A DNA stretch of 64,000 bases from Mayamaea pseudoterrestris. Taxonomy: Eukaryota. A program made the translations under genes and the position numbers. The stretch is from positions 124,001 through 188,000 of the forward strand of contig BROI01000008.1 of assembly GCA_027923505.1 (NCBI GenBank), read 5' to 3'. Numbering within the stretch: position 1 is the stretch's first letter; every line of letters begins with the position of its first letter. Below, piece after piece: positions 20,111 to 56,849 of the stretch. Below the pieces are notes generated by a model. It worked only from the letters and a program-made list of their open reading frames with translations, searched no databases and had not been told where the DNA came from.

Positions 20111-23100
20111 GATGCCCTGGCCACCAACAAACCATAGGGCTGTCCAGTTGGCGCTGGTGCAAAACGGACTGGAGGCCTACGCCATCTGCAAAATGGGTGT
20201 GGCCAACACCCCAAATTATGGAATCATACCACTACAATGCCCCGTCCCCTGATCACCCAACAACCCAATGAGTCAGGCAAAACATGTCCAGGGTGTGCCA
20301 TTGACATGAGGATGGGCTGAAATGGTGCAAAACGGACTGCCTGGAGGCCTACACCATCTGCAAAATGGGTGTGGCCAACACCCCAAATTATGGAATCATA
20401 CCACTACAATGCCCCATCCCCTGATCACCCAACAACCCAATGAGTCATGCAAACCATGTCCAGGGTGTGCCATTGACATGAGGATGGGCTGACATGGTAC
20501 AAAACGGACTGCCTTGTGGCCTACAGCATGGAATGGTCTACAAGATGGGTGTGGCCAACACCCCACATTATGGAATCATACCACTACAATGCCCCATGCC
20601 CTGGCCACCCAACAACCTGCCATTGACATGAGGATGGGCTGAAATGGTGCAAAACGGACTGCCTGGAGGCCTACACCATCTGCTAAATGGGTGTGGCCAA
20701 CACCCCAAATTATGGAATCATACCACTACAATGCCCCGTCCCCTGATCACCCAACAACCCAATGAGTCATGCAAAACATGTCCAGGGTGTGCCATTGACA
20801 TGAGGATGGTCTGACATGGTACAAAACGGACTGCCTGGAGGCCTACAGCATGGAATGGTCTACAAGATGGGTGTGGCCAACACCCCAAATTATGGAATCA
20901 TACCACTACAATGCCCCATGCCCTGGCCACCCAACAACCCAATGAGTCAGGCAAAACATGTCCAGGGTGTGCCATTGACATGAGGATGGGCTGAAATGGT
21001 GCAAAACGGACTGATTGGAGGCCTACACCATCTGCAAAATGGGTGTGGCCAACACCCCAAATTATGGAATCATACCACTACAATGCCCCGTCCCCTGATC
21101 ACCCAACAACCCAATGAGTCATGCAAAACATGTCCAGGGTGTGCCATTGACATGAGGATGGTCTGACATGGTACAAAACGGACTGCCTAAAGGCCTACAG
21201 CATGGAATGGTCTACAAGATGGGTGTGGCCAACACCCCAAATTATGGAATCATACCACTACAATGCCCCATGCCCTGGCCACCCAACAACCCAATGAGTC
21301 AGGCAAAACATGTCCAGGGTGTGCCATTGACATGAGGATGGGCTGAAATGGTGCAAAACGGACTGATTGGAGGCCTACACCATCTGCAAAATGGGTGTGG
21401 CCAACACCCCAAATTATGGAATCATACCACTACAATGCCCCGTCCCCTGATCACCCAACAACCCAATGAGTCATGCAAAACATGTCCAGGGTGTGCCATT
21501 GACATGAGGATGGTCTGACATGGTACAAAACGGACTGCCTAAAGGCTTACAGCATGGAATGGTCTACAAGATGGGTGTGGCCAACACCCCAAATTATGGA
21601 ATCATACCACTACAATGCCCCATGCCCTGGCCACCCAACAACCCAATGAGTCAGGCAAAACACGTCCAGGGTGTGCCATTGACATGAGGATGGGCTGAAA
21701 TGGTGCAAAACGGACTGCCTGGAGGCCTAGACCATCTGCTAAATGGGTGTGGCCAACACCCCAAATTATGGAATCATACCACTACAATCGTCCCCTGATC
21801 ACCCAACAACCCAATGAGTCATGCAAAACATGTCCAGGGTGTGCCATTGACTTGAGGATGGTCTGACATGGTACAAAACGGACTGCCTGGAGGCTTACAG
21901 CATGGAATGGTCTACAAGATGGGTGTGGCCAACACCCCAAATTATGGAATGATACCACTACAATGCCCCATGCCCTGGCCACCCAACAACCCAATGAGTC
22001 AGGCAAAACATGTCCAGGGTGTGCCATTGACATGAGGATGGGCTGAAATGGTGCAAAACGGACTGCCTGGAGGCCTACACCATCTGCAAAATGGGTGTGG
22101 CCAACACCCCAAATTATGGAATCATACCACTACAATGCCCCGTCCCCTGATCACCCAACAACCCAATGAGTCATGCAAAACATGTCCAGGGTGTGCCATT
22201 GACATGAGGATGGTCTGACATGGTACAAAACGGACTGCCTGGAGGCCTACAGCATGGAATGGTCTACAAGATGGGTGTGGCCAACACCCCAAATTATGGA
22301 ATCATACCACTACAATGCCCCATGCCCTGGCCACCCAACAACCCAATGAGTCAGGCAAAACATGTCCAGGGTGTGCCATTGACATGAGGATGGGCTGAAA
22401 TGGTGCAAAACGGACTGCCTGGAGGCCTACACCATCTGCAAAATGGGTGTGGCCAACACCCCAAATTATGGAATCATACCACTACAATGCCCCGTCCCCT
22501 GATCACCCAACAACCCAATGAGTCATGCAAAACATGTCCAGGGTGTGCCATTGACATGAGGATGGTCTGACATGGTACAAAACGGACTGCCTGGAGGCCT
22601 ACAGCATGGAATGGTCTACAAGATGGGTGTGGCCAACACCCCAAATTATGGAATCATACCACTACAATGCCCCATGCCCTGGCCACCCAACAACCCAATG
22701 AGTCAGGCAAAACATGTCCAGGGTGTGCCATTGACATGAGGATGGGCTGAAATGGTGCAAAACGGACTGCCTGGAGGCCTACACCATCTGCTAAATGGGT
22801 GTGGCCAACACCCCAAATTATGGAATCATACCACTACAATGCCCCATGCCCTGATCACCCAACAACCCAATGAGTCATGCAAAACATGTCCAGGGTGTGC
22901 CATTGACATGAGGATGGTCTGACATGGTACAAAACGGACTGCCTGGAGGCCTACAGCATGGAATGGTCTACAAGATGGGTGTGGCCAACACCCCAAATTA
23001 TGGAATCATACCACTACAATGCCCCATGCCCTGGCCACCCAACAACCCAATGAGTCAGGCAAAACATGTCCAGGGTGTGCCATTGACATGAGGATGGGCT

Positions 23101-26100
23101 GAAATGGTGCAAAACGGACTGCCTGGAGGCCTACACCATCTGCAAAATGGGTGTGGCCAACACCCCAAATTATGGAATCATACCACTACAATGCCCCGTC
23201 CCCTGATCACCCAACAACCCAATGAGTCATGCAAAACATGTCCAGGGTGTGCCATTGACATGAGGATGGTCTGACATGGTACAAAACGGACTGCCTGGAG
23301 GCCTACAGCATGGAATGGTCTACAAGATGGGTGTGGCCAACACCCCAAATTATGGAATCATACCACTACAATGCCCCATGCCCTGGCCACCCAACAACCC
23401 AATGAGTCAGGCAAAACATGTCCAGGGTGTGCCATTGACATGAGGATGGGCTGAAATGGTGCAAAACGGACTGCCTGGAGGCCTACACCATCTGCAAAAT
23501 GGGTGTGGCCAACACCCCAAATTATGGAATCATACCACTACAATGCCCCGTCCCTGATCACCCAACAACCCAATGAGTCATGCAAAACATGTCCAGGGTG
23601 TGCCATTGACATGAGGATGGTCTGACATGGTACAAAACGGACTGCCTGGAGGCCTACAGCATGGAATGGTCTACAAGATGGGTGTGGCCAACACCCCAAA
23701 TTATGGAATCATACCACTACAATGCCCCATGCCCTGGCCACCCAACAACCCAATGAGTCAGGCAAAACATGTCCAGGGTGTGCCATTGACATGAGGATGG
23801 TCTGACATGGTACAAAACGGACTGCCTGGACAGCATGGAATGGTCTACAAGATGGGTGTGGCCAACACCCCAAATTATGGAATCATACCACTACAATGCC
23901 CCATGCCCTGGCCACCCAACAACCCAATGAGTCAGGCAAAACATGTCCAGGGTGTGCCATTGACATGAGGATGGGCTGAAATGGTGCAAAACGGACTGCC
24001 TGGAGGCCTACACCATCTGCAAAATGGGTGTGGCCAACACCCCAAATTATGGAATCATACCACTACAATGCCCCGTCCCCTGATCACCCAACAACCCAAT
24101 GAGTCATGCAAAACATGTCCAGGGTGTGCCATTGACATGAGGATGGTCTGACATGGTACAAAATGGACTGCCTGGAGGCCTACTTCATGGAATGGTCTAC
24201 AAGATGGGTGTGGCCAACACCCCAAATTATGGAATCATACCACTACAATGCCCCATGCCCTGGCCACCCAACAACCCAATGAGTCAGGCAAAACATGTCC
24301 AGGGTGTGCCATTGACATGAGGATGGGCTGAAATGGTGCAAAACGGACTGCCTGGAGGCCTACACCATCTGCAAAATGGGTGTGGCCAACACCGCAAATT
24401 ATGGAATCATACCACTACAATGCCCCGTCCCCTGATCACCCAACACACCAATGAGTCATGCAAAACATGTCCAGGGTGTGCCATTGACATGAGGATGGTC
24501 TGACATGGTACAAAACGGACTGCCTGGAGGCCTACAGCATGGAATGGTCTACAAGATGGGTGTGGCCAACACCCCAAATTATGGAATCATACCACTACAA
24601 TGCCCCATGCCCTGGCCACCCAACAACCCAATGAGTCAGGCAAAACATGTCCAGGGTGTGCCATTGACATGAGGATGGGCTGAAATGGTGCAAAACGGAC
24701 TGCCTGGAGGCCTACACTATCTGCAAAATGGGTGTGGCCAACACCGCAAATTATGGAATCATACCACTACAATGCCCCCCCCCTGATCACCCAACAACCC
24801 AATGAGTCATGCAAAACATGTCCAGGGTGTGCCATTGACATGAGGATGGTCTGACATGGTACAAAACGGACTGCCTGGAGGCCTACAGCATGGAATGGTC
24901 TACAAGATGGGTGTGGCCAACACCCCAAATTATGGAATCATACCACTACAATGCCCCATGCCCTGGCCACCCAACAACCCAATGAGTCAGGCAAAACATG
25001 TCCAGGGTGTGCCATTGACATGAGGATGGGCTGAAATGGTGCAAAACGGACTGCCTGGAGGCCTACACCATCTGCAAAATGGGTGTGGCCAACACCGCAA
25101 ATTATGGAATCATACCACTACAATGCCCCGTCCCCTGATCACCCAACAACACAATGAGTCATGCAAAAACATGTCCAGGGTGTGCCATTGACATGAGGAT
25201 GGTCTGACATGGTACAAAACGGACTGCCTGGAGGCCTACAGCATGGAATGGTCTACAAGATGGGTGTGGCCAACACCCCAAATTATGGAATCATACCACT
25301 ACAATGCCCCATGCCCTGGCCACCCAACAACCCAATGAGTCAGGCAAAACATGTCCAGGGTGTGCCATTGACATGAGGATGGGCTGAAATGGTGCAAAAC
25401 GGACTGCCTGGAGGCCTACACCATCTGCAAAATGGGTGTGGCCAACACCGCAAATTATGGAATCATACCACTACAATGCCCCGTCCCCTGATCACCCAAC
25501 AACCCAATGAGTCATGCAAAACATGTCCAGGGTGTGCCATTGACATGAGGATGGTCTGACATGGTACAAAACGGACTGCCTGGAGGCCTACAGCATGGAA
25601 TGGTCTAACAAGATGGGTGTGGCCAACACCCCAAATTATGGAATCATACCACTACAATGCCCCATGCCCTGGCCACCCAACAACCCAATGAGTCAGGCAA
25701 AACATGTCCAGGGTGTGCCATTGACATGAGGATGGGCTGAAATGGTGCAAAACGGACTGCCTGGAGGCCTACACCATCTGCAAATGGGTGTGGCCAACAC
25801 CGCAAATTATGGAATCATACCACTACAATGCCCCGCCCCTGATCACCCAACAACCCAATGAGTCATGCAAAACATGTCCAGGGTGTGCCATTGACATGAG
25901 GATGGTCTGACATGGTACAAAACGGACTGCCTGGAGGCCTACAGCATGGAATGGTCTACAAGATGGGTGTGGCCAACACCCCAAATTATGGAATCATACC
26001 ACTACAATGCCCCCATGCCCTGGCCACCCAACAACCCAATGAGTCAGGCAAAACATGTCCAGGGTGTGCCATTGACATGAGGATGGGCTGAAATGGTGCA

Positions 26101-29100
26101 AAACGGACTGCCTGGAGGCCTACACCATCTGCAAAATGGGTGTGGCCAACACCCCAAATTATGGAATCATACCACTACAATGCCCCGTCCCCTGATCACC
26201 CAACAACCCAATGAGTCATGCAAAACATGTCCAGGGTGTGCCATTGACATGAGGATGGTCTGACATGGTACAAAACGGACTGCCTGGAGGCCTACAGCAT
26301 GGAATGGTCTACAAGATGGGTGTGGCCAACACCCCAAATTATGGAATCATACCACTACAATGCCCCATGCCCTGGCCACCCAACAACCCAATGAGTCAGG
26401 CAAAACATGTCCAGGGTGTGCCATTGACATGAGGATGGGCTGAAATGGTGCAAAACGGACAGCCTGGAGGCCTACACCATCTGCAAAATGGGTGTGGCCA
26501 ACACCCCAAATTATGGAATCATACCACTACAATGCCCCGTTCCCTGATCACCCAACAACCCAATGAGTCATGCAAAACATGTCCAGGGTGTGCCACTGAC
26601 ACGAGGATGGTCTGACATGGTACAAAACGGACTGCCTGGAGGCCTACAGCATGGAATGGTCTACAAGATGGGTGTGGCCAACACCCCAAATTATGGAATC
26701 ATACCACTACAATGCCCCATGCCCTGGCCACCCAACAACCCAATGAGTCAGGCAAAACATGTCCAGGGTGGGCCATTGACATGAGGATGGGCTGAAATGG
26801 TGCAAAACGGACTGCCTGGAGGCCTACACCATCTGCAAAATGGGTGTGGCCAACACCCCAAATTATGGAATCATACCACTACAATGCCCCGTCCCCTGAT
26901 CACCCAACAACCCAATGAGTCATGCAAAACATGTCCAGGGTGTGCCATTGACATGAGGATGGTCTGACATGGTACAAAACGGACTGCCTGGAGGCCTACA
27001 GCATGGAATGGTCTACAAGATGGGTGTGGCCAACACCCCAAATTATGGAATCATACCACTACAATGTCCCATGCCCTGGCCACCCAACAACCCAATGAGT
27101 CAGGCAAAACATGTCCAGGGTGTGCCATGGACATGAGGATGGTCTGACATGGTACAAAACGGACTGCCTGGAGGCCTACAGCATGGAATGGTCTACAAGA
27201 TGGGTGTGGCCAACACCCCAAATTATGGAATCATACCACTACAATGCCCCGTCCCCTGATCACCCAACAACCCAATGAGTCATGCAAAACATGTCCAGGG
27301 TGTGCCATTGACATGAGGATGGTCTGACATGGTACAAAACGGACTGCCTGGAGGCCTACAGCATGGAATGGTCTACAAGATGGGTGTGGCCAACACCCCA
27401 AATTATGGAATCATACCACTACAATGTCCCATGCCCTGGCCACCCAACAACCCAATGAGTCAGGCAAAACATGTCCAGGGTGTGCCATTGACATGAGGAT
27501 GGGCTGAAATGGTGCAAAACGGACTGCCTGGAGGCCTACACCATCTGCAAAATGGGTGTGGCCAACACCCCAAATTATGGAATCATACCACTACAATGCC
27601 CCGTCCCCTGATCACCCAACAACCCAATGAGTCATGCAAAACATGTCCAGGGTGTGCCATTGACATGAGGATGGTCTGACATGGTACAAAATGGACTGCC
27701 TGGAGGCCTACTTCATAAATTGGTCTACAAGATGGGTGTGGCCAACACCCCAAATTATGGAATCATACCACTACAATGCCCCATGCCCTGGCCACCCAAC
27801 AACCCAATGAGTCAGGCAAAACATGTCCAGGGTGTGCCATTGACATGAGGATGGGCTAAAATGGTGCAAAACGGACTGCCTGGAGGCCTACACCATCTGC
27901 AAAATGGGTGTGGCCAACACCCCAAATTATGGAATCATACCACTACAATGCCCCGTCCCCTGATCACCCAACAACCCAATGAGTCATGCGAAACATGTCC
28001 AGGGTGTGCCATTGACATGAGGATGGTCTGAGATGGTACAAAACGGACTGCCTGGAGGCCTACAGCATGGAATGGTCTACAAGATGGGTGTGGCCAACAC
28101 CCCAAATTATGGAATCATACCACTACAATGCCCCATGCCCTGGCCACCCAACAACCCAATGAGTCAGGCAAAACATGTCCAGGGTGTGCCATTGACATGC
28201 GGATGGGCTGAAATGGTGCAAAACGGACTGCCTGGAGGCCTACGCCATCTGCAAAATGGGTGTGGCCAACTCCCCAAATTATGGAATCATACCACTACAA
28301 TGCCCCGTCCCCTGATCACCCATCAACCCAATGAGTCATGCAAAACATGTCCAGGGTGTGCCATTGACATGAGGATGGTCTGACATGGTACAAAACGGAC
28401 TGCCTGGAGGTCTACAGCATGGAATGGTCTACAAGATGGGTGTGGCCAACACCCCAAATTATGGAATCATACCACTACAATGCCCCACGCCCTGGCCACC
28501 CAACAACCCAATGAGTCAGGCAAAACATGTCCAGGGTGTGCCATTGACATGAGGATGGGCTGAAATGGTGCAAAACGGACTGCCTGGAGGCCTACACCAT
28601 CTGCAAAATGGGTGTGGCCAACACCCCAAATTATGGAATCATACCACTACAATGCCCCGTTCCCTGATCACCCAACAACCCAATGAGTCATGCGAAACAT
28701 GTCCAGGGTGTGCCACTGACACGAGGATGGTCTGACATGGTACAAAAGGGACTGCCTGGAGGCCTACAGCATGGAATGGTCTACAAGATGGGTGTGGCCA
28801 ACACCCCAAATTATGGAATCATACCACTACAATGCCCCATGCTCTGGCCACCCAACAACCCAATGAGTCAGGCAAAACATGTCCAGGATGTGCCATTGAC
28901 ATGAGGATGGGCTGAAATGGTGCAAAACGGACTGCCTGGAGGCCTACACCATCTGCAAAATGGGTGTGGCCAACACCCCAAATTATGGAATCATACCACT
29001 ACAATGCCCCGTCCCCTGATCACCCAACAACCCAATGAGTCATGCAAAACATGTCCAGGGTGTGCCATTGACATGAGGATGGTCTGACATGGTACAAAAC

Positions 29101-31848
29101 GGACTGCCTGGAGGCCTACAGCATGGAATGGTCTACAAGATGGGTGTGGCCAACACCCCAAATTATGGAATCATACCACTACAATGCCCCATGCCCTGGC
29201 CACCCAACAACCCAATGAGTTTTGCAAAACATGTCCAGGGTGTGCCATTGACATGAGGATGGGCTGAAATGGTGCAAAACGGACTGCCTGGAGGCCTACA
29301 CCATCTGCAAAATGGGTGTGGCCAACACCCAAAATTATGGAATCATACCACTACAATGCCCCATCCCCTGATCACCCAACAACCCAATGAGTCATGCAAA
29401 ACATGTCCAGGGTGTGCCATGGACATGAGGATGGTCTGACATGGTACAAAACGGACTGCCTGGAGGCCTACAGCATGGAATGGTCTACAAGATGGGTGTG
29501 GCCAACACCCCAAATTATGGAATCATACCACTACAATGCCCCATGCCCTGGCCACCCAACAACCCAATGAGTCAGGCAAAACATGTCCAGGGTGTGCCAT
29601 TGACATGAGGATGGGCTGAAATGGTGCAAAACGGACTGCCTGGAGGCCTACACCATCTGCAAAATGGGTGTGGCCAACACCCCAAATTATGGAATCATAC
29701 CACTACAATGCCCCGTCCCCTGATCACCCAACAACCCAATGAGTCATGCAAAACATGTCCAGGGTGTGCCATTGACATGAGGATGGTCTGACATGGTACA
29801 AAACGGACTGCCTGGAGGCCTACAGCATGGAATGGTCTACAAGATGGGTGTGGCCAACACCCAAAATTATGGAATCATACCACTACAATGCCCCATGCCC
29901 TGGCCACCCAACAACCCAATGAGTCAGGCAAAACATGTCCAGGGTGTGCCATTGACATGAGGATGGGCTGAAATGGTGCAAAACGGACTGCCTGGAGGCC
30001 TACACCATCTGCAAAATGGGTGTGGCCAACACCGCAAATTATGGAAACATACCACTACAATGCCCCATCCCCTGATCACCCAACAACCCAATGAGTCATG
30101 CAAAACATGTCCAGGGTGTGCCATTGACATGAGGATGGTCTGACATGGTACAAAACGGACTGCCTGGAGGCCTACAGCATGGAATGGTCTACAAGATGGG
30201 TGTGGCCAACACCCCAAATTATGGAATCATACCACTACAATGCCCCATGCCCTGGCCACCCAACAACCCAATGAGTCAGGCAAAACATGTCCAGGGTGTG
30301 CCATTGACATGAGGATGGGCTGAAATGGTGCAAAACGGACTGCCTGGAGGCCTACACCATCTGCAAAATGGGTGTGGCCAACACCCCAAATTATGGAATC
30401 ATACCACTACAATGCCCCGTCCCCTGATCACCCAACAACCCAATGAGTCATGCGAAACATGTCCAGGGTGTGCCATTGACATGAGGATGGTCTGAGATGG
30501 TACAAAACGGACTGCCTGGAGGCCTACAGCATGGAATGGTCTACAAGATGGGTGTGGCCAACACCCCAAATTATGGAATCATACCACTACAATGCCCCAT
30601 GCCCTGGCCACCCAACAACCCAATGAGTCAGGCAAAACATGTCCAGGGTGTGCCATTGACATGCGGATGGGCTGAAATGGTGCAAAACGGACTGCCTGGA
30701 GGCCTACGCCATCTGCAAAATGGGTGTGGCCAACTCCCCAAATTATGGAATCATACCACTACAATGCCCCGTCCCCTGATCACCCATCAACCCAATGAGT
30801 CATGCAAAACATGTCCAGGGTGTGCCATTGACATGAGGATGGTCTGACATGGTACAAAACGGACTGCCTGGAGGCCTACAGCATGGAATGGTCTACAAGA
30901 TGGGTGTGGCCAACACCCCAAATTATGGAATCATACCACTACAATGCCCCACGCCCTGGCCACCCAACAACCCAATGAGTCAGGCAAAACATGTCCAGGG
31001 TGTGCCATTGACATGCGGATGGGCTGAAATGGTGCAAAACGGACTGCCTGGAGGCCTACACCATCTGCAAAATGGGTTGTGGCCAACACCCCAAATTAAG
31101 GAATCATACCACTACAATGCCCCGTCCCCTGATCACCCAACAACCCAATGAGTCATGCAAAACATGTCCAGGGTGTGCCATTGACATGAGGATGGTCTGA
31201 CATGGTACAAAACGGACTGCCTGGAGGCCTACAGCATGGAATGGTCTACAAGATGGATGTGGCCAACACCCCAAATTATGGAATCATACCACTACAATGC
31301 CCCATGCCCTGGCCACCCAACAACCCAATGAGTCAGGCAAAACATGTCCAGGGTGTGCCATTGACATGAGGATGGGCTGAAATAGTGCAAAACGGACTGC
31401 CTGGAGGCCTACACCATCTGCAAAATGGGTGTGGCCAACACCGCAAATTATGGAATCATACCACTACAATGCCCCGTCCCCTGATCACCCAACAACCCAA
31501 TGAGTCATGCAAAACATGTCCAGGGTGTGCCATTGACATGAGGATGGTCTGACATGGTACAAAACGGACTGCCTGGAGGCCTACAGCATGGAATGGTCTA
31601 CAAGATGGGTGTGGCCAACACCCCAAATTATGGAATCATACCACTACAATGCCCCATGCCCTGGCCACCCAACAACCCAATGAGTCAGGCAAAACATGTC
31701 CAGGGTGTGCCATTGACATGAGGATGGGCTGAATTGGTGCAAAACGCACTGCCTGGAGGCCTACACCATCTGCAAAATGGGTGTGGCCAACACCACAAAT
31801 TATGGAATCATACCACTACAATGCCCCGTCCCCTGATCACCCAACAAC
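20111..31848. repeat. Satellite B: 352-bp dimeric higher-order repeat of alternating 180- and 172-bp monomers, about 33 dimers
   Basis: CACCCCAAATTATGG at 20701, 20881, 21053, 21233 (spacings 180/172/180). Monomers differ at diagnostic sites (CAGCATGGAATGGTCTACAAG vs CACCATCTGCAAA; CATGCCCTGGCC vs CGTCCCCTGATC). Confidence 0.97.
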
Positions 31849-32346
31849 CGGCCAGTCCTTTGTCCTAGCCGACATACCGGCTTGCTGTCATCCAGCCCAT
31901 CTAGGCAGCTAGCTAGTTGGAGAGACGAGTTGGTGTTAACAGGCAGTTTACTTGCCAGCCCCCCCAGGCCCAGTGTCGCGAGGGTGGGTGAGGAGGGTGA
32001 AGCTTATGAGACTATCTAATGAAGTACTGGAACTGCTTGACTCGGATGTCTGCAGTTGACTTCGTGCAACAGAATGAGGAGACGAGAATCGACGTCGCGA
32101 GGCTTTCGCCGCGCGGAGCGTAGTAAGGCGGTATCAGGTAAAGTCTCGAGTAGGTGCATGTGCTTCTTGGTGTTCAATTGTCCGGTGCGGCTTTCTTCCC
32201 CCTGCACCGGAATGACGGCCAGTCCTTTGTCCTAGCCGACATACCGGCTTGCTGTCATCCAGCCCATCTAGGCAGCTAGCTAGTTGGAGAGACGAGTTGG
32301 TGTTAACAGGCAGTTTACTTGCCAGCCCCCCCAGGCCCAGTGTCGC
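31849..32346. repeat. 131-bp direct repeat pair (31849-31979 and 32216-32346) around a 236-bp spacer at the satellite edge
   Basis: CGGCCAGTCCTTTG...CCCAGTGTCGC occurs twice, offset 367 bp. The first copy directly abuts satellite B. Confidence 0.9.
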
Positions 32347-32915
32347 TCCAACAGCCTCCCATTTCGGAGGAAGTCTGAGAAATCAGGCCACGACAAGTCT
32401 GGGTGGGAGCGAAGCGGGGAGGCACGAAGTGCGGGAAAGAAAGCGCGCGGGCGAGGGGCGCGAGACGGCGCGCGAGGAAATTACATGAGTGGAACGAAAT
32501 GGTTGAATCTTCTTGATGTGCATGGCAGCAGTAGAAGCTATGTACAGTTCAAAGCGTTGCAGAGGTGCTTGTTTCACTCGACTCGTCCCATGGTCGAATG
32601 GCAAAAGTCCGTTGATTGGATTCGATGGTGTCGTAGCGGTCGCGCCGGCCAGCTTTACCTACCGTATCGGCACCGGTAGGTTCTCCCACTCAGAGTTAAG
32701 GATTTGAAACATTGGCGAGATGCACTCGCGTCACCTTCACCATGAGATTGATGATGGAGACGAAGAGCACTCGCCCACTTCTTGACGGGACACTACTGAC
32801 GTAATCTTTGCAGAGAACCTTTAGCAATAATTTTGAACAAGAGGATTGGCGGCATATCGTTTTAACATATTCGCAGGTCATTATCGCCGCGAGGCTAAGA
32901 GGAAAGGCTTGTTCG

Positions 32916-33220
32916 AGTCGAAACAATTAAGGTTCAGGCCCTGCCAGTGTCCGTTTGTTTCGGTTGATCCTCATGGCTGGATATCTGTTAATATCCAGTA
33001 TCTGTGAATACTCAAGTTACTTAAGCTACAGAAGCAAGCCGACGTTACTAACACGTCGGCAACGGTCCCCTTAAAGTAGCGGTAACAACTAAATCAAATC
33101 ATTCTATTGCAAAGTACACGCAATCGTCTCGTTCCCCTCTTCTTACCAAGTTAGCAGACTGATCATCTCTCCTACTTGACCAGAGTACTCAAGGTAACTT
33201 CGACACAAGTTGCATTGATA
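32916..33220 (+). repeat. Copia 5' LTR (305 bp)
   Basis: AGTCGAAAC...GCATTGATA. Matches 40367-40667. Contains two 8-bp-stem inverted repeats (CTGGATAT/ATATCCAG, GCCGACGT/ACGTCGGC). Confidence 0.93.
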
Positions 33221-34917
33221 GGTTATTCGTCTCCAATCAGCCTACCGTGGCTACAAAATCTCGTTCTAGACCCCGAGAAAAGCATCATGTCTACCGACAA
33301 CAACGACACCGACACGGAGCAGTACTTCGACACTCCTCCTCCTAAACCCCGAGCTGGCTCTCCAACATCTGCTGCAGCCGATCTTGCCACGCTCATCACA
33401 GCTCTCAAGTCGATTCCATCCGACCAGCTTAAGATCCTCCTCCAAGCCGTCCAACCGACCGACGCGTCGTCTGGAGACTCCCCTCCCAAGTATGAAACCT
33501 CTATTCCAACGGCCAACGAATATGTTTCCCTCATTGGTGGTTACCTCGATGCCGAGCGCAAGATTGCCTTCTGTGGAGGCAAACCGAATCTTGACTACAC
33601 GCTCCCCCAAGTGCTCGAGGACGATCCGCTCGCCAAGCACATCCCCAAGACGCCAGCTTGTCACCGCGATTTGACAATGAAGCGTGCTGCTCAGGATTAC
33701 GCCATTCGCATTGCTTTCAAGCCTTCCATTGGCAAGTTAGAGAAGGCGATGCCGATGTTCGCCTGGGGCGAGCTCATCCTTCGTGCGCTTGAAACGACTG
33801 GCGGCGATTCCGTCACTTACTCGCTGTCGAGAGACAACAAGGCGCGCGTTAGTGTTTGTACCAACTTTGATGTACTCACGCTCGCTCACGTTATCGCTCA
33901 AAGCAAGAAGGATGTCGCCAATTGGCGTCCAATGGACCACGAGAACAGCTCGATGGCGTTGAGTTAGTGTTGAATCACTTGAGCACGGCGATCCAACAGA
34001 TTGTCGAGCCTCGCGAAGGAAGATGATACCTTCGCTATCTTCTTTATGCGCACGCTCAAGCCAACGCTGATCTTTCATCTGGCTCTGCCGACAAGATGAA
34101 GGCAGAGCTCCGTGCTTACAAATTGACCGACGTTTCCTACCAAGACGTTCACCATTTTGGTGCCAAGTTCCTCAACACTGAGCGCCAGCTTCACAATGGC
34201 AAACGCTGGGATCATGCGCTTGGATTGATCTTCATTAGAGAGCTCTCCAAGTGTCCATCGGAAGTTATGCGTGTAACGTTCATCGGCATTGGAGAACGGT
34301 ACGACACTGCTCTTCGTGAAATCAATCCCCTCTCCTACGACGAGCAGCGCTCTCGCATGTTCAGTTTAAACGTTCATATCTCCCAGCTGGTTGAACGCGC
34401 TGATGATCTTTACGCTCAGATCAAAGCAGTTGATGGAGGATGGCCTCCGCTTGTCAATATTGTCGACAAGAAAGCGCCCGATATCAACTCGTTGACGAAA
34501 CTCAGCCACGCCGAGCAAGCTGCTCTCATCTCAAGCGGCCAAGTTGACATCAACAATCTCGTTCAATCCAAGGTCAAAGAGCTCCGCACAAAGGACAAGA
34601 AGCAGTTGGAGGCTTACAAGAAGCGATTCGCCAAGCAGTCGCCAACTGGCGACACCAAGGCTCCAAACACGACTCCTTCTGGCGATTCCACCAAGACCGC
34701 CGAAAAGCGAGCTGAACGCCCTTTACCAGCATGGCGCACAAAGCCGCCTGCTGCCAACAATAAAGACGAAGTCAAGGAGGTTGGCAAGTACAAGTTCCAG
34801 TGGTGCGACAAGTGCTCCAAGTGGGTGTGGAATCATACGTCTGCAACTCACAAATCCAAGTCGCCCGAGGCAATAGCAGGTATGCAACAGAAAGTAGTAT
34901 CACTATGCCGTTAAAAG

Positions 34918-34973
34918 TAGCGCACCTCGGAATCGAACCAAGGATAACCGGCTATATCACCTCTAAACACGCT
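34918..34973 (-). ncRNA. 56-nt minimal tRNA-like module in TRIM 3' LTR (putative)
   Basis: Minus strand AGCGTGT-TTAGAGGTGATATAGCCGGTTATC-CTTGG TTCGATT CCGAG-GTGCGCT-A, followed by CTTTT. B box GGTTCGATTCC at 34939-34929. No full D or anticodon arm. Confidence 0.6.
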
Positions 34974-35387
34974 GCTACTTTTCCGTCTGCTAGTGTACTA
35001 TATGCTGCATACAAGGCACCATGCACTATGACAAGTAAAGGTATCGCTCTGGTTGCTGTTTTTCGTGTGCAACCTGCTACTCCCCTAGCTTTGCGCGTCA
35101 TAGTGCTAACTCGTCTTCCGTTTCAGCTGGCATTTTCGTCTCGCGGGGGAATGTCACTTTTCAGTTTTTCCTGCGGCGTTTCGGGCTCGGCGCATCTTTG
35201 TGCACTCCCCAGGGTCCGCGACTCCCCATCGTTCGTTCGTGACAAACCCGTGCAACCAGTGAATTTTTGCTTTTTCTTCGCTTGATTCGATCGCAACTCG
35301 AACCAGCAGCCTCAGTCCAGATCTCTCGATAGGGACGCTACCATAGCAGGTATGCAACAGAAAGTAGTATCACTATGCCGTTAAAAG

Positions 35388-35443
35388 TAGCGCACCTCGG
35401 AATCGAACCAAGGATAACCGGCTATATCACCTCTAAACACGCT
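35388..35443 (-). ncRNA. 56-nt minimal tRNA-like module in TRIM 5' LTR (identical copy, putative)
   Basis: Identical to 34918-34973, offset 470 bp. Lies about 45 nt upstream of the PBS on the minus strand. Confidence 0.6.
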
Positions 35444-35633
35444 GCTACTTTTCCGTCTGCTAGTGTACTATATGCTGCATACAAGGCACCATGCACTATG
35501 ACAAGTAAAGGTATCGCTCTGGTTGCTGTTTTTCGTGTGCAACCTGCTAGCAAACAACTTCATCCTTGCCGACTCCGCCAACGTGTTTGAAGAATTCACC
35601 GACTACGCTCCCTTCGCTGACAGTCAGGAATGA

Positions 35634-38600
35634 CTTGAATGCGGAAGGACGCCGCCTCTTCTTCTCTTTGTTCAAGCGTTTTGTTTCAAGACTGCCTTCG
35701 CCCGGTTCATCCTCAAGCCCGTCGCCGCCTTGCTCCTCTTGGCTGCTCTGAGTATGCTTCCTACCGTCCTACCGGCCGTCCTTGAATCAGTTTGCGCTTG
35801 CGCATTGAGTGGACTTGCGCTCAATCAATGGTTCTGGTCTTCGACTCTCGCCAACGCCTCTTCGTTTGCTTGCAATGCGCTCAGTCTTTCGCGCGCCGCG
35901 CTCGCTCTTCCAACGTTTCTTCGCTGGTTTTGGTTTGAGTTACTCACGACTACGCTCGAGAGGGAGATGATGTTGCTGTGGATGACAGTTATCCTCGAAG
36001 CATTAGCTCTTTCCTATCACCTTTCTCCGAGTCGTCCGCAACCAACTAGAGACAAGCTCCGTCAAAAACAAAAACACTACGACAAACGCAAGAACTCTAC
36101 TGACGAACGTCAACCTTCCGTCCAATCAAAACGCCGCATTCGCCAACAGAAACGATTGAAAAGAACGCTCCGTGTCCCACTCATCTATAGCTATCACCGT
36201 TCCTATCCAACAAGATTGCGCAGCGACGGCATCTATCGTCAAAGAGTCCATTGCCCTCGTTTCGAGACCCTTCCAGACGCCAAGACTGTTCCCATTGAAG
36301 TCATTAAAGGGTACAATGGCTTGTTTACGACCCTCGTCGAGTCCAAGGCATGCCGATGGATCGACAATCCCATCTCCCAATTTAATTCCCTCGTCGAGTA
36401 CCCCAGCCTCATGGATTACCTTGGCGCGCTCGCTCCACTCGAGTTCAACAACGTTACTTTCCAAGCAGACTCTACAGTCAATGACTTTGCCTTCTCTCCA
36501 AGCAATGCTGCACGATCCTCCACGTTCGAAATCATTCACGACAGCGGCGCTTCTGCAACCGTCGCCAATCACTTGGATGACTTCGTCCCTGGTACTTACC
36601 GCAAGAGCACAAAGAAGATCATTGCTAAAGGCCTCGCATCTGGATTGCAAGTAGTTGGCCATGGCATAATTGACTGGACCCTTGATGGCAACGATGGCAA
36701 GCCTCTACGAGTCCGTTGTCAAGCTCTCTACATACCCGACAGTCCGCGCAAGTTACTGTGTCCCCAACAGTACACTCGATATCACAAGCTACACGATCGC
36801 GAGGCGAATTTAACGTTTGCTATTAATGGAGAAGGATTCTGGTACTTTGATCTACACAAACAAGGACGCCCGTCCCTTCTTCACGGCTCGATCGATCCAG
36901 TCACCAACCTACCGACTTCTACAGCCATTGCAACTCAAGATAGTCCTGAAACCCTTCATGCTGAGTTTAATGCATGTGTAACAGACGCGCGAAACGCCAA
37001 CTTGTCGCCCGCGCAAAAGCTCCTTCTTCAATGGCATTTCAAGTGCGGCCACGCCAGCTTCCGCAGCATTCAAAACCTTCTACGCTCTGGTCGCCTCGCT
37101 ACAAGCGATGAGATGCGCAAACTCCATAAAGCAGCAGCCTCCTGTGAGATCCCGCGGTGCGCTGCTTGCGAGTTTGGCAAGGCAAAACGCCGACCCGCGC
37201 CCGGAACGAGTCGTCAACCAACGCCTCGAGCCGATGGATCGCTCAAGCAAGGAAAGCTTCGACCAGGACAACAAGTCTCCGTTGATCATTACATCTGCAG
37301 TCAAAAGGGACGCCTCTATACGTCTCGCGGCAAAACGTCGACCGACTCAATGTTCAGCGGTGGCGCGCTCTTTGTCGACCACGCAAGTGGATACGTCTTC
37401 GTCGACCATCAAGTTGTTATGAACACTCATGAAACTCTTCGCTCCAAGTGGAACTTTGAAAAGGTTGCAAGGGATTGCGGCGTTTCAATTGAAAGCTACT
37501 TGTCTGATAACGCTGCGTGTTTCACCAGTCACGAGTACACTGAGCATCTTTCCAAATTCAAGCAGACGACTGTCTTTGCAGGCGTCGGCGCACATCATCA
37601 AAACGGAATAGCAGAACGAAACATTCAAACCATTATGAATATGGCAAGAACGATGCTTATCCATGCTAACATGCATTGGACTGACGTTGATGATATGTCG
37701 CTCTGGCCGATGGCCGTCGACTACGCAGTTTACATCTTCAATCGAATGCCAAACGTCGCCACTGGCCAAGCTCCCATTGATATCTTCACTGGTACCATCT
37801 GGGCAAGTCACAAGTTCCATCATCTCCACGTTTTTGGATCGCCCGCCTACGTTCTTGATCCTCGCATGCAAGACGGCAAGTCCATTCCTCGTTGGAAAGT
37901 GCGCTCACGCCGCGGGATCTTTGTCGGCTTCTCCAGCAAGCACTCAGCTACCGTTCCACTTGTCCTCAATCTGAATACATTAACAATCAGTCCTCAGTAT
38001 CACGTTACGCATGACGATTGGTTTACCACAGTTGACGCTCTTCCTGATTCGCCTCCAAATTTTACGGACGACAGATGGACGAGTCTCTTTGCGACAAGCA
38101 AGTACATCTATCCGTTCGACGACGATGATCCCCTTCCTGCTCTCAATCCTGAGTGGGAGGACAACTTTGATGCCTCAGCTGCTCGCCAAGACGCTATACA
38201 TGCAGCACAGACTCCTTCTACTGCTCCAGTTTTACCTGCTCCCGCCGCTCCGCCCGCGGTTGCTCCAGTTCCTTCCAATGATTCTCCGCCCATCCCAGGC
38301 GCTCCGCCTACGAATCAGAGGGAGACAAGGCCTCCTGAAATTCATTCGCCTCAAGAAACTACAGAACCACAGCTTCAGAGGGAGCAGAGGGAGCATTTAG
38401 ATCACATTGATGGCAATCCTTTGCGCTCGTCCGCACCAACACCGCGTGTCGCAGCCGATGTCACAGTCAATCCCAGTCCACCAAACGCATCAAACGAGTC
38501 CACGATCCCGACGACAGCTCCCACGCTCGCACAACAACAACAACAAGCAAGTGATCCTCCTTTACGTCGCTCTGCACGTTTACGCGATCGTCCTCCTGAG

Positions 38601-40309
38601 CCAGTTATTACTCGAGCTCAGCGCCTTCGCCATGCTCGCGACGAAATGATTGAAACCAATATGCTGTTAGCAGAGCATGCGCACGCGGAATACCCTTACT
38701 CAATTGGTTTAACGCAAGTGCTACTCGCCTCGACCAACGATCCCGACACACTCCGCTACGATGAAGCGATGCGCGCTGATGACTCTGAAGAGTTCAGGAA
38801 AGCCGCAGGAATAGAGATCAAGTCGCTCGAAGACCATGGAACGTGGGTTGTCATACCAAGGACCGAGGTTCCTCAAGGAAAGCAAATCATTCCCGGCACG
38901 TGGACCTTTCGCCGCAAGCGAGCAGTGAGCTCAAGAAACACAAAGCTCGCTTCTGCGTTCGAGGAGACCTACAGAAGGACGTTTGAAACGGTTTGCCCCC
39001 AGTCGTTCAATGGAGCACCGTTCGTGTCCTCATGGTATTCGCCTTGACGTTCGGATACAAAAACCAAGTGCATTGATTTCACCAACGCTTTCGTTCAGGC
39101 AGAACTAAAGGATCCAATCTACATTCAATTCCTCGGCTTTCAACACAAAGACGGTCATCAATCAGCGATTACTGTTTAAAGTTGCTCAAGTCGTGCTACG
39201 GAACGAAGATCGCCCCAAAGCTCTTCTACGAACACTTACGCGACCGACTCGTCGAACTCGGATTCACTCAAAGCTTCTTCGATCCCTGTCTCTTCTACCG
39301 CAATGGACAAATCATCGCCTGTTACGTTGACGATTGCATCTGCGTCGCCCGTCCCGACAAGGAGCTACAGACCATCATCGACGACCTTCGCTCCAAGTTC
39401 ACGCTCACCGAAGAAGGCGATCTCAGTCAATATCTTGGCATTGATATAAAGCGCTCTGGCAAGTCTTTCACGCTCACTCAAACGGGTCTGATCGACAGTA
39501 TCATTCAAGCTACTGGAATGGAGGCTGCTAACGGAGTCTTCACGCCCGCCAATGACACGCTCGGCAAGAACGCCGATTTACCTGATCATCAAGAGAGCTG
39601 GAGCTACAACTCGCTAATCGGCAAGCTTCTTTATCTCGCTGGTAACTCGCGTCCTGATATTGCTTTCGCTGTCAATCAATGCGCAAGATTCAATCACTGT
39701 CCTAAAAAGCCACACTTTGACGCCGTTAAACGCATCGTCCGCTATCTCATCAAGACTCGCGAACAAGGACTCATCATGACGCCCGAAGGCAACCTCACGG
39801 TTGACTGTTACGTTGATGCCGACTTTGCTGGTTTATATGGAAAGGAAGACGGACAAGATCCAGTGTGCGCTCAATCACGTACCGGATACCTCATTATGCT
39901 CGGTGGCTGCCCCGTCTTTTGGCAAAGCAAGCTACAAACCGAAATCGCTCTATCTACAATGGAATCCGAGTATGTTGCTCTTTCTTCAAGTCTTCGCCAA
40001 GTCATTCCTATCCAAGCAATCGTCAAGGAAATGGGAAACAAAATGAAGCAACGCATTCAAGTAAACGCGCGCTCCTACTGCACGGTTTACGAAGATAACG
40101 CAGGCTGCCTAGCGCTCGCCAATGCCCCTCATCTTACGCCTCGCTCTCGCCATTACGCTACTAAGTATCACCACTTTAAGCACCACGTAAAACAGGGCAC
40201 GATCAAAGTCGTTAAGATTGATACCAAGGAGCAACGAGCGGATATCTTTACCAAGGCGCTGCCGCAAGTCACATTCGAGCACCTCCGCCGTCTCCTTATG
40301 GGATGGTAA
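35634..40309 (+). pseudogene. pol: Copia pol (protease, integrase, RT, RNase H) with clustered frameshifts at ~38920-39180
   Basis: PR: IHDSGAS. IN: WHFKCGH..CAAC, VSVDH, SDN, NGIAERNI. RT fragments across frames (KHKARFCVRGD, FAPVVQWSTVR, IDFTNAFVQA) and YVDD. RH: YVDADFAG, EDN, ADIFTK. Confidence 0.93.
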
Positions 40310-40366
40310 GTTGCTCATCTCCTCTGTTATTTGTCTCTATGTCTATAACATCGATCCAAGAGGGAG

Positions 40367-40667
40367 AGTCGAAACAATTAAGGTTCAGGCCCTGCCAGTG
40401 TCCGTTTGTTTCGGTTGATCCTCATGGCTGGATATCTGTTAATATCCAGTATCTGTGAATACTCAAGTTACTTAAGCTACAGAAGCAAGCCGACGTTACT
40501 AACACGTCGGCAACGGTCCCCTTAAAGTAGCGGTAACAACTAAATCAAATCATTCTATTGCAAAGTACACGCAATCGTCTCGTTCCCCTCTTCTTACCAA
40601 GTTAGCAGACTGATCATCTCCTACTTGACCAAGTACTCAAGGTAACTCGACACAAGTTGCATTGATA
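40367..40667 (+). repeat. Copia 3' LTR (301 bp)
   Basis: Follows the PPT. Same as the 5' LTR except three small deletions (4 bp total) in the last ~50 bp. Confidence 0.93.
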
Positions 40668-40805
40668 GTTCGGGCCCAAGAACTCTTGGAGATTGGAGCA
40701 CCTCAGCCATCAGCCTTTAGCCTATCGCCTTGTGAAAAACAGCAATATACTCTACTACAGAAACTTTGTTTCCAGCTGTGGTCAGGAAGTCGATTGTCGG
40801 GTAAA

Positions 40806-52288: not shown

Positions 52289-54056
<1,768 letters not shown>

Positions 54057-56240: not shown

Positions 56241-56710
56241 TTTTCAAAGTTTCTGGCAGTACTCTTTGAGCAACAGTAAACGTGCGTTGAGAATCAAAGT
56301 TATTGGCAGTACTCTATAAACGACAGTCAACGTACGTTGAGAATCAAAGTTATTGGCAGCACTGTTTGAGCAACAGTCAACGTACGTTGAAAATCAAAGT
56401 TATTGGCAGGACTGTTTGAGCAATAGTCAACGTACGTTGAGAATCAAAGTTATTGGCAGTTCTCTATAAACGACAGTCAACGTACGTTGAAAATCAAAGT
56501 TATTGGCAGTACTGTTTGAGCAACAGTCAACGTACGTTGAAAATCAAAGTTATTGGCAGTACTGTTTGAGTAACAGTCAACGTACGTTGAAAATCAAAGT
56601 TATTTGCAGTACTGTTTGAGCGTTAGTCAACGTACGTTGAGAATCAAAGTTATTGGCAGTACTCTATAAACGACAGTCAACGTACGTTGAAAATCAAAGT
56701 TATTGGCAGT
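56241..56710. repeat. 50-bp minisatellite, about 9 copies, with 14-bp palindrome TCAACGTACGTTGA
   Basis: TATTGGCAG every 50 bp from 56301 to 56701 (variant at 56601), degenerate copy at 56251. Confidence 0.95.
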
Positions 56711-56849
56711 ATGTACTGATACAGAACGCCTATATGTCATGACATTTCCAAGTTCTATTGTACTGTACTACTAAACAGTGCTTTGACGCGATCACCATGG
56801 CGCACCATCCTTATCCGCTGAACAAACAAACCCATCATAAACAAAAAGC

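Follow-up and report, generated by a model that had tools for sequence, protein, structure and literature searches.

The pennate diatom Mayamaea pseudoterrestris carries a 676-bp element that is almost certainly a TRIM, and each of its two LTRs holds a degenerate tRNA-like segment with an A box, a B box and a T run. We favour reading it as a Helenus / TRIMp3-type LTR retrotransposon that is young, mobile and non-autonomous. The element lies in a 64-kb stretch of DNA, here called the window, in which an earlier note had picked out Pol III-type promoter and terminator signals. Because the stretch singled out in that note sits in an LTR and the two LTRs are identical, every promoter-type signal is present twice.

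The TRIM consists of a 206-bp LTR, a 264-bp internal region and a second 206-bp LTR (Table 1). Two direct repeats, 34873-35079 and 35343-35549, are 100% identical and lie 470 bp apart, which bears out the earlier placement of the signals inside an LTR. The LTR termini, TAGCAGGT...ACCTGCTA, form an 8-nt terminal inverted repeat with TA...TA at its ends. Next to the LTRs stand a primer-binding site (PBS), of which TGGTAGCG occurs nowhere else in the window, and a polypurine tract (PPT), and the whole is bounded by a 4-bp target-site duplication (TSD). At its total length the TRIM has no gag/pol coding capacity, and the lone long frame that overlaps it (34764-35285, plus strand) gave no match in a Pfam search.

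Table 1. Features of the TRIM and its surroundings, in window coordinates.
Feature	Position	Strand	Remarks
Satellite array, 169-bp unit	1-20070
Satellite array, 180/352-bp unit	20155-31849
Host Ty1/copia element	32915-40668 (about)	+	between satellites and genes; TRIM nested in its gag-like ORF
Target-site duplication GCAA, left	34870-34873	+	4 bp
Whole TRIM, 676 bp	34874-35549	-	exact limits from empty-site contig and direct repeats
3' LTR, 206 bp	34874-35079	-	includes the stretch of the earlier note, 34913-35002
TTTT run, 3' LTR	34913-34916	-	LTR 164-167, two bases past discriminator A
tRNA-like segment, 83 nt, degenerate, 3' LTR	34917-34999	-	LTR positions 81-163; ARAGORN -ps
B box GGTTCGATTCC, 3' LTR	34929-34939	-	inside T arm
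A box TAGCAGACGG, 3' LTR	34983-34992	-	tRNA positions 8-19
PPT AAAGCTAGGGGAG	35080-35092	-	immediately precedes 3' LTR
PBS TGGTAGCGTCCC	35332-35343	-	adjoins 5' LTR
5' LTR, 206 bp	35344-35549	-	identical to 3' LTR
TTTT run, 5' LTR	35383-35386	-	LTR 164-167, two bases past discriminator A
tRNA-like segment, 5' LTR copy	35387-35469	-	ARAGORN -ps
B box GGTTCGATTCC, 5' LTR	35399-35409	-	inside T arm
A box TAGCAGACGG, 5' LTR	35453-35462	-	tRNA positions 8-19
Target-site duplication GCAA, right	35550-35553	+	4 bp

Beyond the satellite arrays the window is gene-dense, intron-poor eukaryotic DNA. The phosphoglucose-isomerase frame at 52289-53293 shares 100% identity with a protein of Mayamaea pseudoterrestris, and its next-best named matches are from other diatoms. 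The copia element into which the TRIM is inserted has LTRs of ~308 bp separated by three small indels and domain matches to gag-pre-integrase, SH3_retrovirus and RVT_2; the insertion point lies 26 codons ahead of the stop of its gag-like frame. We considered this copia element as the TRIM's partner and dropped it, because in BLAST the TRIM shared nothing longer than 20-nt words with the remainder of the window and the PBSs of the two elements differ. The genome paper for this diatom describes repeats that are mainly Ty1-Copia, and mentions no TRIM in the portion available to us (PMC9724779).

Copies of the TRIM were compared through contigs of public sequencing runs, eight of which contained the element, none of these being catalogued as RNA, and four of which (X1, X3, X4 and X5) were compared. 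An empty site is preserved in a different sample, record 10 of run X5, where 34729-34873 is joined straight to the sequence starting at 35554 with a single GCAA; the contig reads ...CCCGAGGCAA and then directly ACAACTTC..., the latter being the sequence from window position 35554. The coexistence of filled and empty sites shows recent movement, and with its identical LTRs the studied copy is very young. The LTR occurs in at least two further genomic contexts. Record 6 of run X3 joins the LTR end at 35079 to satellite-like sequence, which, compared by eye with the 169-bp satellite consensus of the window in reverse complement, differs at 1 of 30 bases. Records 2 and 3 of run X1 hold a decayed copy that shows 14 differences over 127 nt and has a different flank. 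In the main contigs of all four runs the LTR is identical to that of the window, and because the well-covered copies are all identical, selection on the boxes cannot be read from them. Contig depth, which is not copy number, was 15.6 over the TRIM against 2.5 over the flank in X3 and 871 against 4-9 in X5. The TRIM flank had no cover in X1 and X4, from which we draw no inference.

The tRNA-like segment runs in the same direction as the TRIM, and its 83 nt exceed the module of ~60 nt proposed earlier. In the ARAGORN model its acceptor stem forms six of seven pairs (AGTACAC / GTGCGCT), and its arms comprise a D stem of 3 pairs, an 8-nt anticodon loop on a weak stem, and a long, class-II-like variable arm. 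The T arm is perfect (CTTGG/TTCGATT/CCGAG), and the 3' end is made up of a discriminator A, then C, then TTTT. ARAGORN labels the segment tRNA-?(Stop|Leu), with the 4-base 'anticodon' ttag. The relaxed search (-ps) made only two calls in the 64-kb window, both of them the LTR copies; at the default threshold the whole window yielded no tRNA. At E up to 10 the Rfam tRNA model matched neither the surrounding 1.4 kb (34500-35900) nor the closer 116 nt (34900-35015), and the same intervals and limit gave no match to the 5S and hammerhead families. Sub-threshold Rfam matches to snoRNA, miRNA and lncRNA families at 14-16 bits were set aside as noise.

Folding of the 83 nt did not produce a cloverleaf (-17.2 kcal/mol, z = +0.89, with 166 of 200 shuffles as stable or better), the stable part of the fold being the T hairpin only, and the fold of the 160-nt context was not significant (z = -0.70). 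The minimum-energy fold of that context does contain the 9-nt pairing of AAAAGTAGC (34982-34974) with GCTACTTTT (34921-34913) that had been suggested as an alternative structure enclosing the module, and both strands of it are present. Because ARAGORN calls the segment only when relaxed, Rfam does not match it and no cloverleaf forms, the segment is non-functional as a tRNA. It has kept its promoter boxes, T arm and stop signal, and its anticodon arm and stems have decayed. As read from the sequence, the evidence on ancestry is mixed and favours descent, so that the segment very probably derives from a tRNA or a tRNA-derived SINE.

The individual motifs named in the earlier note were all present on the minus strand: GTGTTTAGAGG (34970-34960), GGTTCGATTCC (34939-34929), TTTT (34916-34913) and TATAG within the TATA-like GCATATAG (35005-34998). 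Two of them turned out to have been assigned the wrong role or place. GTGTTTAGAGG, put forward as a weak A box, falls in the anticodon-loop region of the 83-nt segment, and a better A box, TAGCAGACGG, lies 20 nt upstream and had been missed. TATAG, described as standing about 29 nt upstream of the module, is actually at the 5' edge of the tRNA-like segment and not ~30 nt before its start. The new A box starts 53 nt before the start of the B box, a spacing like that of tRNAs whose variable arm is long. The only runs of at least four T on the TRIM's sense strand are the two TTTT, one per LTR; depletion of sense-strand T runs as a Pol III signature was not significant (0 seen against 0.6-0.9 expected, P = 0.41-0.53).

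With an A box from tRNA position 8, this box spacing, and TTTT 2 nt past the discriminator, the layout fits Pol III, and we infer, tentatively and with rather less than even confidence, that a Pol III promoter is active in the LTR. If it is, the A and B boxes of the 5' LTR would recruit TFIIIC, TFIIIB and Pol III, with transcription starting near LTR position 81. The majority of transcripts would end at the TTTT of the same LTR (LTR 164-167) and give a small RNA of ~85 nt. A read-through fraction would stop instead at the 3' LTR's copy of this TTTT, and the resulting RNA of ~557 nt would repeat LTR 81-167 at both ends, the R region needed for strand transfer. An autonomous LTR element would then provide the reverse transcriptase and integrase that copy this non-coding RNA and insert it, and a cellular tRNA, possibly of initiator type, with a 3' end matching TGGTAGCGTCCC would act as primer. 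The anatomy and established LTR-element biology imply the retrotransposition route itself, in which reverse transcriptase and integrase supplied in trans would act with a tRNA primer, the PPT and a staggered cut of 4 bp.

The intact parts of the segment are exactly what Pol III needs, namely an in-register A box, all 11 nt of the B box and a run of T, while the anticodon arm and stems have decayed, and the same pattern of retention is reported for Helenus (PMC10886601). The LTR, moreover, contains neither AATAAA nor ATTAAA by direct reading. Both observations count against the idea that the tRNA-like piece is a relic of a tRNA or tRNA-derived SINE fragment, which would have landed in one LTR, reached the other through retrotransposition, and have lost any promoter role. 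The TRIM would then be transcribed by Pol II like ordinary TRIMs, and the T-arm hairpin would be at most an RNA structure in R/U5. We regard this as unlikely, though several observations speak for it. The segment is as degenerate as a relic would be by Rfam, folding and relaxed-only ARAGORN calls, and the TATA-like GCATATAG at its 5' edge could set a Pol II start within it. The TTTT just past the segment would truncate Pol III transcripts, stopping most of them ahead of the PBS. The boxes were not spared in the decayed X1 copy, in which the B box is altered at 2 of 11 bases (to GGTTCAATTCT) and TTTT has become ATAT. Finally, insertion of a SINE into an LTR is the source that Kojima proposes for such elements (PMC10886601).

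Far less probable is a chance resemblance, in which an LTR hairpin would merely look like a T arm and have no tRNA descent. The B box by itself is not beyond chance: its consensus, GGTTCGANNCC, has two matches in the window, where shuffles had a mean of 0.26 per window and at least two matches in 2 of 100 cases, and since both matches are LTR copies they amount to one independent occurrence. The case was also selected from a very large scan, and the missing Rfam tRNA match points the same way. The combination of the B box with the A box and the acceptor register, however, is beyond chance. When the upstream 137 nt were shuffled and the T arm and 3' acceptor strand left unchanged, 47 of 200,000 shuffles placed an A-box consensus (TRGCNNA..GG) right after a 7-nt strand able to form at least 6 of 7 pairs with the 3' acceptor strand; this register test was defined after the structure was known, and the consensus used was the textbook one. 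On 10 Mb of simulated sequence relaxed ARAGORN gave 17 calls, or ~1.7 false calls per Mb and ~0.0004 per 206-bp LTR. On shuffles of the kind just described, in which the T arm is fixed because it dominates ARAGORN scores, it called a tRNA in 64 of 3,000. A discriminator A followed by TTTT likewise matches the layout of a tRNA gene.

As to the primer, we take Ty1 nucleotide 335 to be the Ty1 PBS for initiator tRNA-Met. The first eight bases of the TRIM's PBS are the first eight of a Ty1 probe primer reported to start at that nucleotide (PMC7055915), and because the start of the PBS is shared with the Ty1 site, an initiator-type cellular primer is plausible. The PBS is also largely complementary to the segment itself. 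Trimmed behind the discriminator and followed by CCA, the 3' end of the segment would pair with TGGTAGCGTCCCT of the PBS at 12 of 13 positions (8 Watson-Crick pairs, 1 G-U pair, 1 mismatch, then 3 Watson-Crick pairs), and an A1:U72 end pair belongs to the segment as well as to the tRNA that the PBS implies. This match could reflect chance, at roughly 1 in 1,000 to 1 in 10,000 before post-hoc choice, or shared tRNA ancestry, or self-priming. The acceptor stems of the segment and of the PBS-implied tRNA differ in 3 of 7 pairs (3'-strand positions 67 and 68; 5'-strand bases 3-6), which means that the segment is more than a mere duplicate of the primer.

For self-priming, the Pol III small RNA, as an acceptor/T-arm minihelix, would have to be 3'-trimmed after the discriminator, receive CCA, anneal to its own PBS and start reverse transcription. 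The pairing, the shared end pair and a TTTT 2 nt past the discriminator suit such a scheme, which we nevertheless hold to be very improbable: TGG/CCA and the discriminator A are generic and leave ~4 to 8 informative positions, the match was noticed post hoc, the acceptor stem departs from the PBS-implied one as just described, the 5' parts of the segment are badly decayed, a perfectly matching cellular tRNA is a simpler primer, and Kojima's account, in the text available, has such complementarity in no Helenus (PMC10886601). If true, self-priming would free the TRIM from any cellular tRNA species, a link that was sought and, as reported there, not found in earlier Helenus families (PMC10886601).

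The reading we prefer is that of a Helenus / TRIMp3 element. Kojima (2024) gave the name Helenus to TRIMs with tRNA-like LTR sequences and grouped them with Cassandra and Ajax as TRIMp3 (PMC10886601). In Helenus LTRs box A (TRGCY, YGG) and box B (GGTTC) are reported as conserved, most of the units are judged to be non-functional tRNAs, and the author considers the boxes likely Pol III promoters without experimental proof (PMC10886601). The A box of the diatom TRIM, TAGCA..CGG, agrees with this consensus at 4 of 5 and 3 of 3 positions, with A where TRGCY has Y. The diatom element shares with Helenus its shortness, the paired LTRs, the PBS, PPT and TSD of a TRIM, and a tRNA-like LTR sequence that keeps boxes A and B and is no functional tRNA (PMC10886601). 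Its 676 bp fall inside the reported range of 311-1263 bp, and its 4-bp TSD is as in animal Helenus (PMC10886601).

Unlike the Helenus hosts of Kojima's Table 1, which are fungi, six animal phyla and Selaginella and include no stramenopile, the host here is a diatom, a stramenopile (PMC10886601). Helenus elements are described with 5-bp TSDs and Copia partners in fungi and with 4-bp TSDs and Gypsy partners in animals (PMC10886601); the diatom TRIM has a 4-bp TSD, linked to Gypsy in that scheme, yet resides in a genome whose repeats are mainly Ty1-Copia (PMC10886601, PMC9724779). Two further features set it against Helenus as described, the complementarity of the segment's 3' end to the PBS (PMC10886601) and the TA...TA termini of its LTRs. 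Its placement with Helenus / TRIMp3 is one of structure, by the boxes and the tRNA-like LTR segment.

The other members of the group, and SINEs, share parts of this design. Pol III promoters and terminators are reported from the LTRs of Cassandra, whose PBS is TGGTATCAGAGC (PMC7215508). Both Cassandra and the diatom element are TRIMs with a small-RNA-gene unit, comprising an internal Pol III-type promoter and a terminator, in their LTRs (PMC7215508). Cassandra has a plant host, and its 5S unit bears boxes A and C, whereas the diatom TRIM has a tRNA-type A/B unit, and Rfam at E up to 10 found no 5S-derived sequence in its LTR. The LTR of Ajax, a nemertean TRIM with a 5S promoter fragment, similarly retains only the promoter-relevant part of a small-RNA gene (PMC10886601), but Ajax is 5S-derived and has 5-bp TSDs and a tRNA-Leu primer. 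Like the diatom TRIM, tRNA-derived SINEs (SINE2), which have been proposed as the source of the LTR module, are short non-coding retroelements in which a degenerate tRNA part, the SINE head, bears A and B boxes (PMC10886601). SINEs, however, lack LTRs, a PBS and a PPT and rely on LINEs, whereas the diatom TRIM has all three structures and a fixed 4-bp TSD.

A search for relatives with an exact 22-nt stretch of the module gave no matches in the viral, metagenome and genome contig collections. A looser pattern, combining the B-box consensus, a 40-65 nt gap and an LTR end with PBS, gave 29 metagenome loci, all of which we rejected as tRNA genes or chance matches; 16 of the 29 contain a tRNA gene called by ARAGORN. 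One of the rejected loci, L003, shares CTATGGTAGCGTC with the TRIM and has a tRNA-like stretch followed by a T run, but no flanking repeat. Thus the exact-stretch and looser-pattern contig searches revealed no relatives outside this organism group. Among the papers listed by literature searches, judged by titles and abstracts, none dealt with a TRIMp3 from a diatom. The earlier note had proposed a tRNA-based analogue of Cassandra, and that much stands, in that tRNA-type boxes and a T run replace the 5S unit in the LTRs of a TRIM; the novelty it implied does not, since the design has been published as Helenus / TRIMp3 (PMC10886601). What is new therefore shrinks to the host group, and we read the diatom TRIM as an additional Helenus / TRIMp3 element, from a group of hosts that Kojima's Table 1 does not include.

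If this classification holds, the TRIMp3 design, a Pol III promoter borrowed from a small-RNA gene, extends to the stramenopiles. Kojima's survey, so far the sole one, argues for multiple independent origins of the design, and the diatom case supports the view that it arose repeatedly (PMC10886601). LTRs of this kind can also inflate or confuse the annotation of tRNAs and SINEs in diatom genomes. The host is a diatom with a small genome, and related diatoms are transformable. A young copy together with transformable relatives therefore offers a possible practical system for testing the use of an LTR tRNA-type promoter by Pol III, and the same system could show how a terminator that lies inside both LTRs is bypassed once and obeyed once.

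Once the TRIM (a 676-bp Helenus/TRIMp3-type element on the minus strand) and one GCAA of its target duplication are discounted, the gag-like and pol frames of the Ty1/copia element that hosts it fall in one reading frame. The only separation between the two is a single TGA at 35631-35633, and the TRIM had inserted into the gag-like frame 26 codons ahead of it. Since the frames are shared and one stop codon lies between them, the sequence suggests that this junction is passed by stop-codon read-through rather than by a frameshift. The 270-codon frame that precedes the gag-like frame had no Pfam match.

A candidate 4-bp target duplication, GTTC, flanks the copia element (32911-32914 and 40665-40668), whose boundaries carry a one-base ambiguity. 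The host element, like the TRIM, may thus carry a 4-bp duplication, and its LTRs may end in ...GATA. Three small indels near the 3′ ends distinguish the two copia LTRs.

Within the 206-bp LTR of the TRIM, the hexamer TAGCAG occurs three times, a recurrence that may reflect an old internal duplication. The earlier note had proposed an alternative 9-bp pairing enclosing its module (34982-34974 with 34921-34913); this acceptor-like pairing can be traced to the third TAGCAG. Between the two TTTT runs, one after the tRNA-like segment of each LTR (34913-34916 and 35383-35386), the TRIM sense strand holds seven runs of at least four A, a count reached in 0.22% of 5,000 shuffles. In the internal region, the plus-strand T5-GC-T5 at 35264-35275 is replaced by a far longer T run in several short contigs from X5, a public sequencing run, and this longer T run is an A run in the TRIM’s own direction.

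Repeats and open frames in the window, with the TAGCAG copies of the TRIM LTR
Feature	Position	Strand	Remarks
Satellite array 1	1-20070		169-bp unit, ~119 copies, 96% matches
Satellite array 2	20155-31849		180/352-bp unit
Perfect direct repeat, 131 nt	31849-31979 and 32216-32346		spacing 367 bp; edge of satellite array 2
Open frame, 270 codons	33155-33967	+	starts inside copia 5′ LTR, upstream of gag-like frame
Copia gag-like and pol frames	34027-39047	+	zinc-knuckle-like WCDKCSKW near end of gag-like frame
TAGCAG copy 1	35079-35074 (LTR 1-6)		very start of LTR
TAGCAG copy 2	34992-34987 (LTR 88-93)		in A box
TAGCAG copy 3	34977-34972 (LTR 103-108)		15 nt beyond A-box copy
Tandem repeat, 50-bp unit	56244-56711		9.4 copies, 88% matches

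The 50-bp tandem repeat is flanked by RNase HII-like and tRNA (guanine-1) methyltransferase-like genes. The transposon-rich stretch of the window adjoins both long satellite arrays. In one contig from X3, another public run, the LTR of this TRIM is joined to sequence resembling the 169-bp satellite. Together, the satellites and transposons may mark a centromere-like region where retroelements accumulate.
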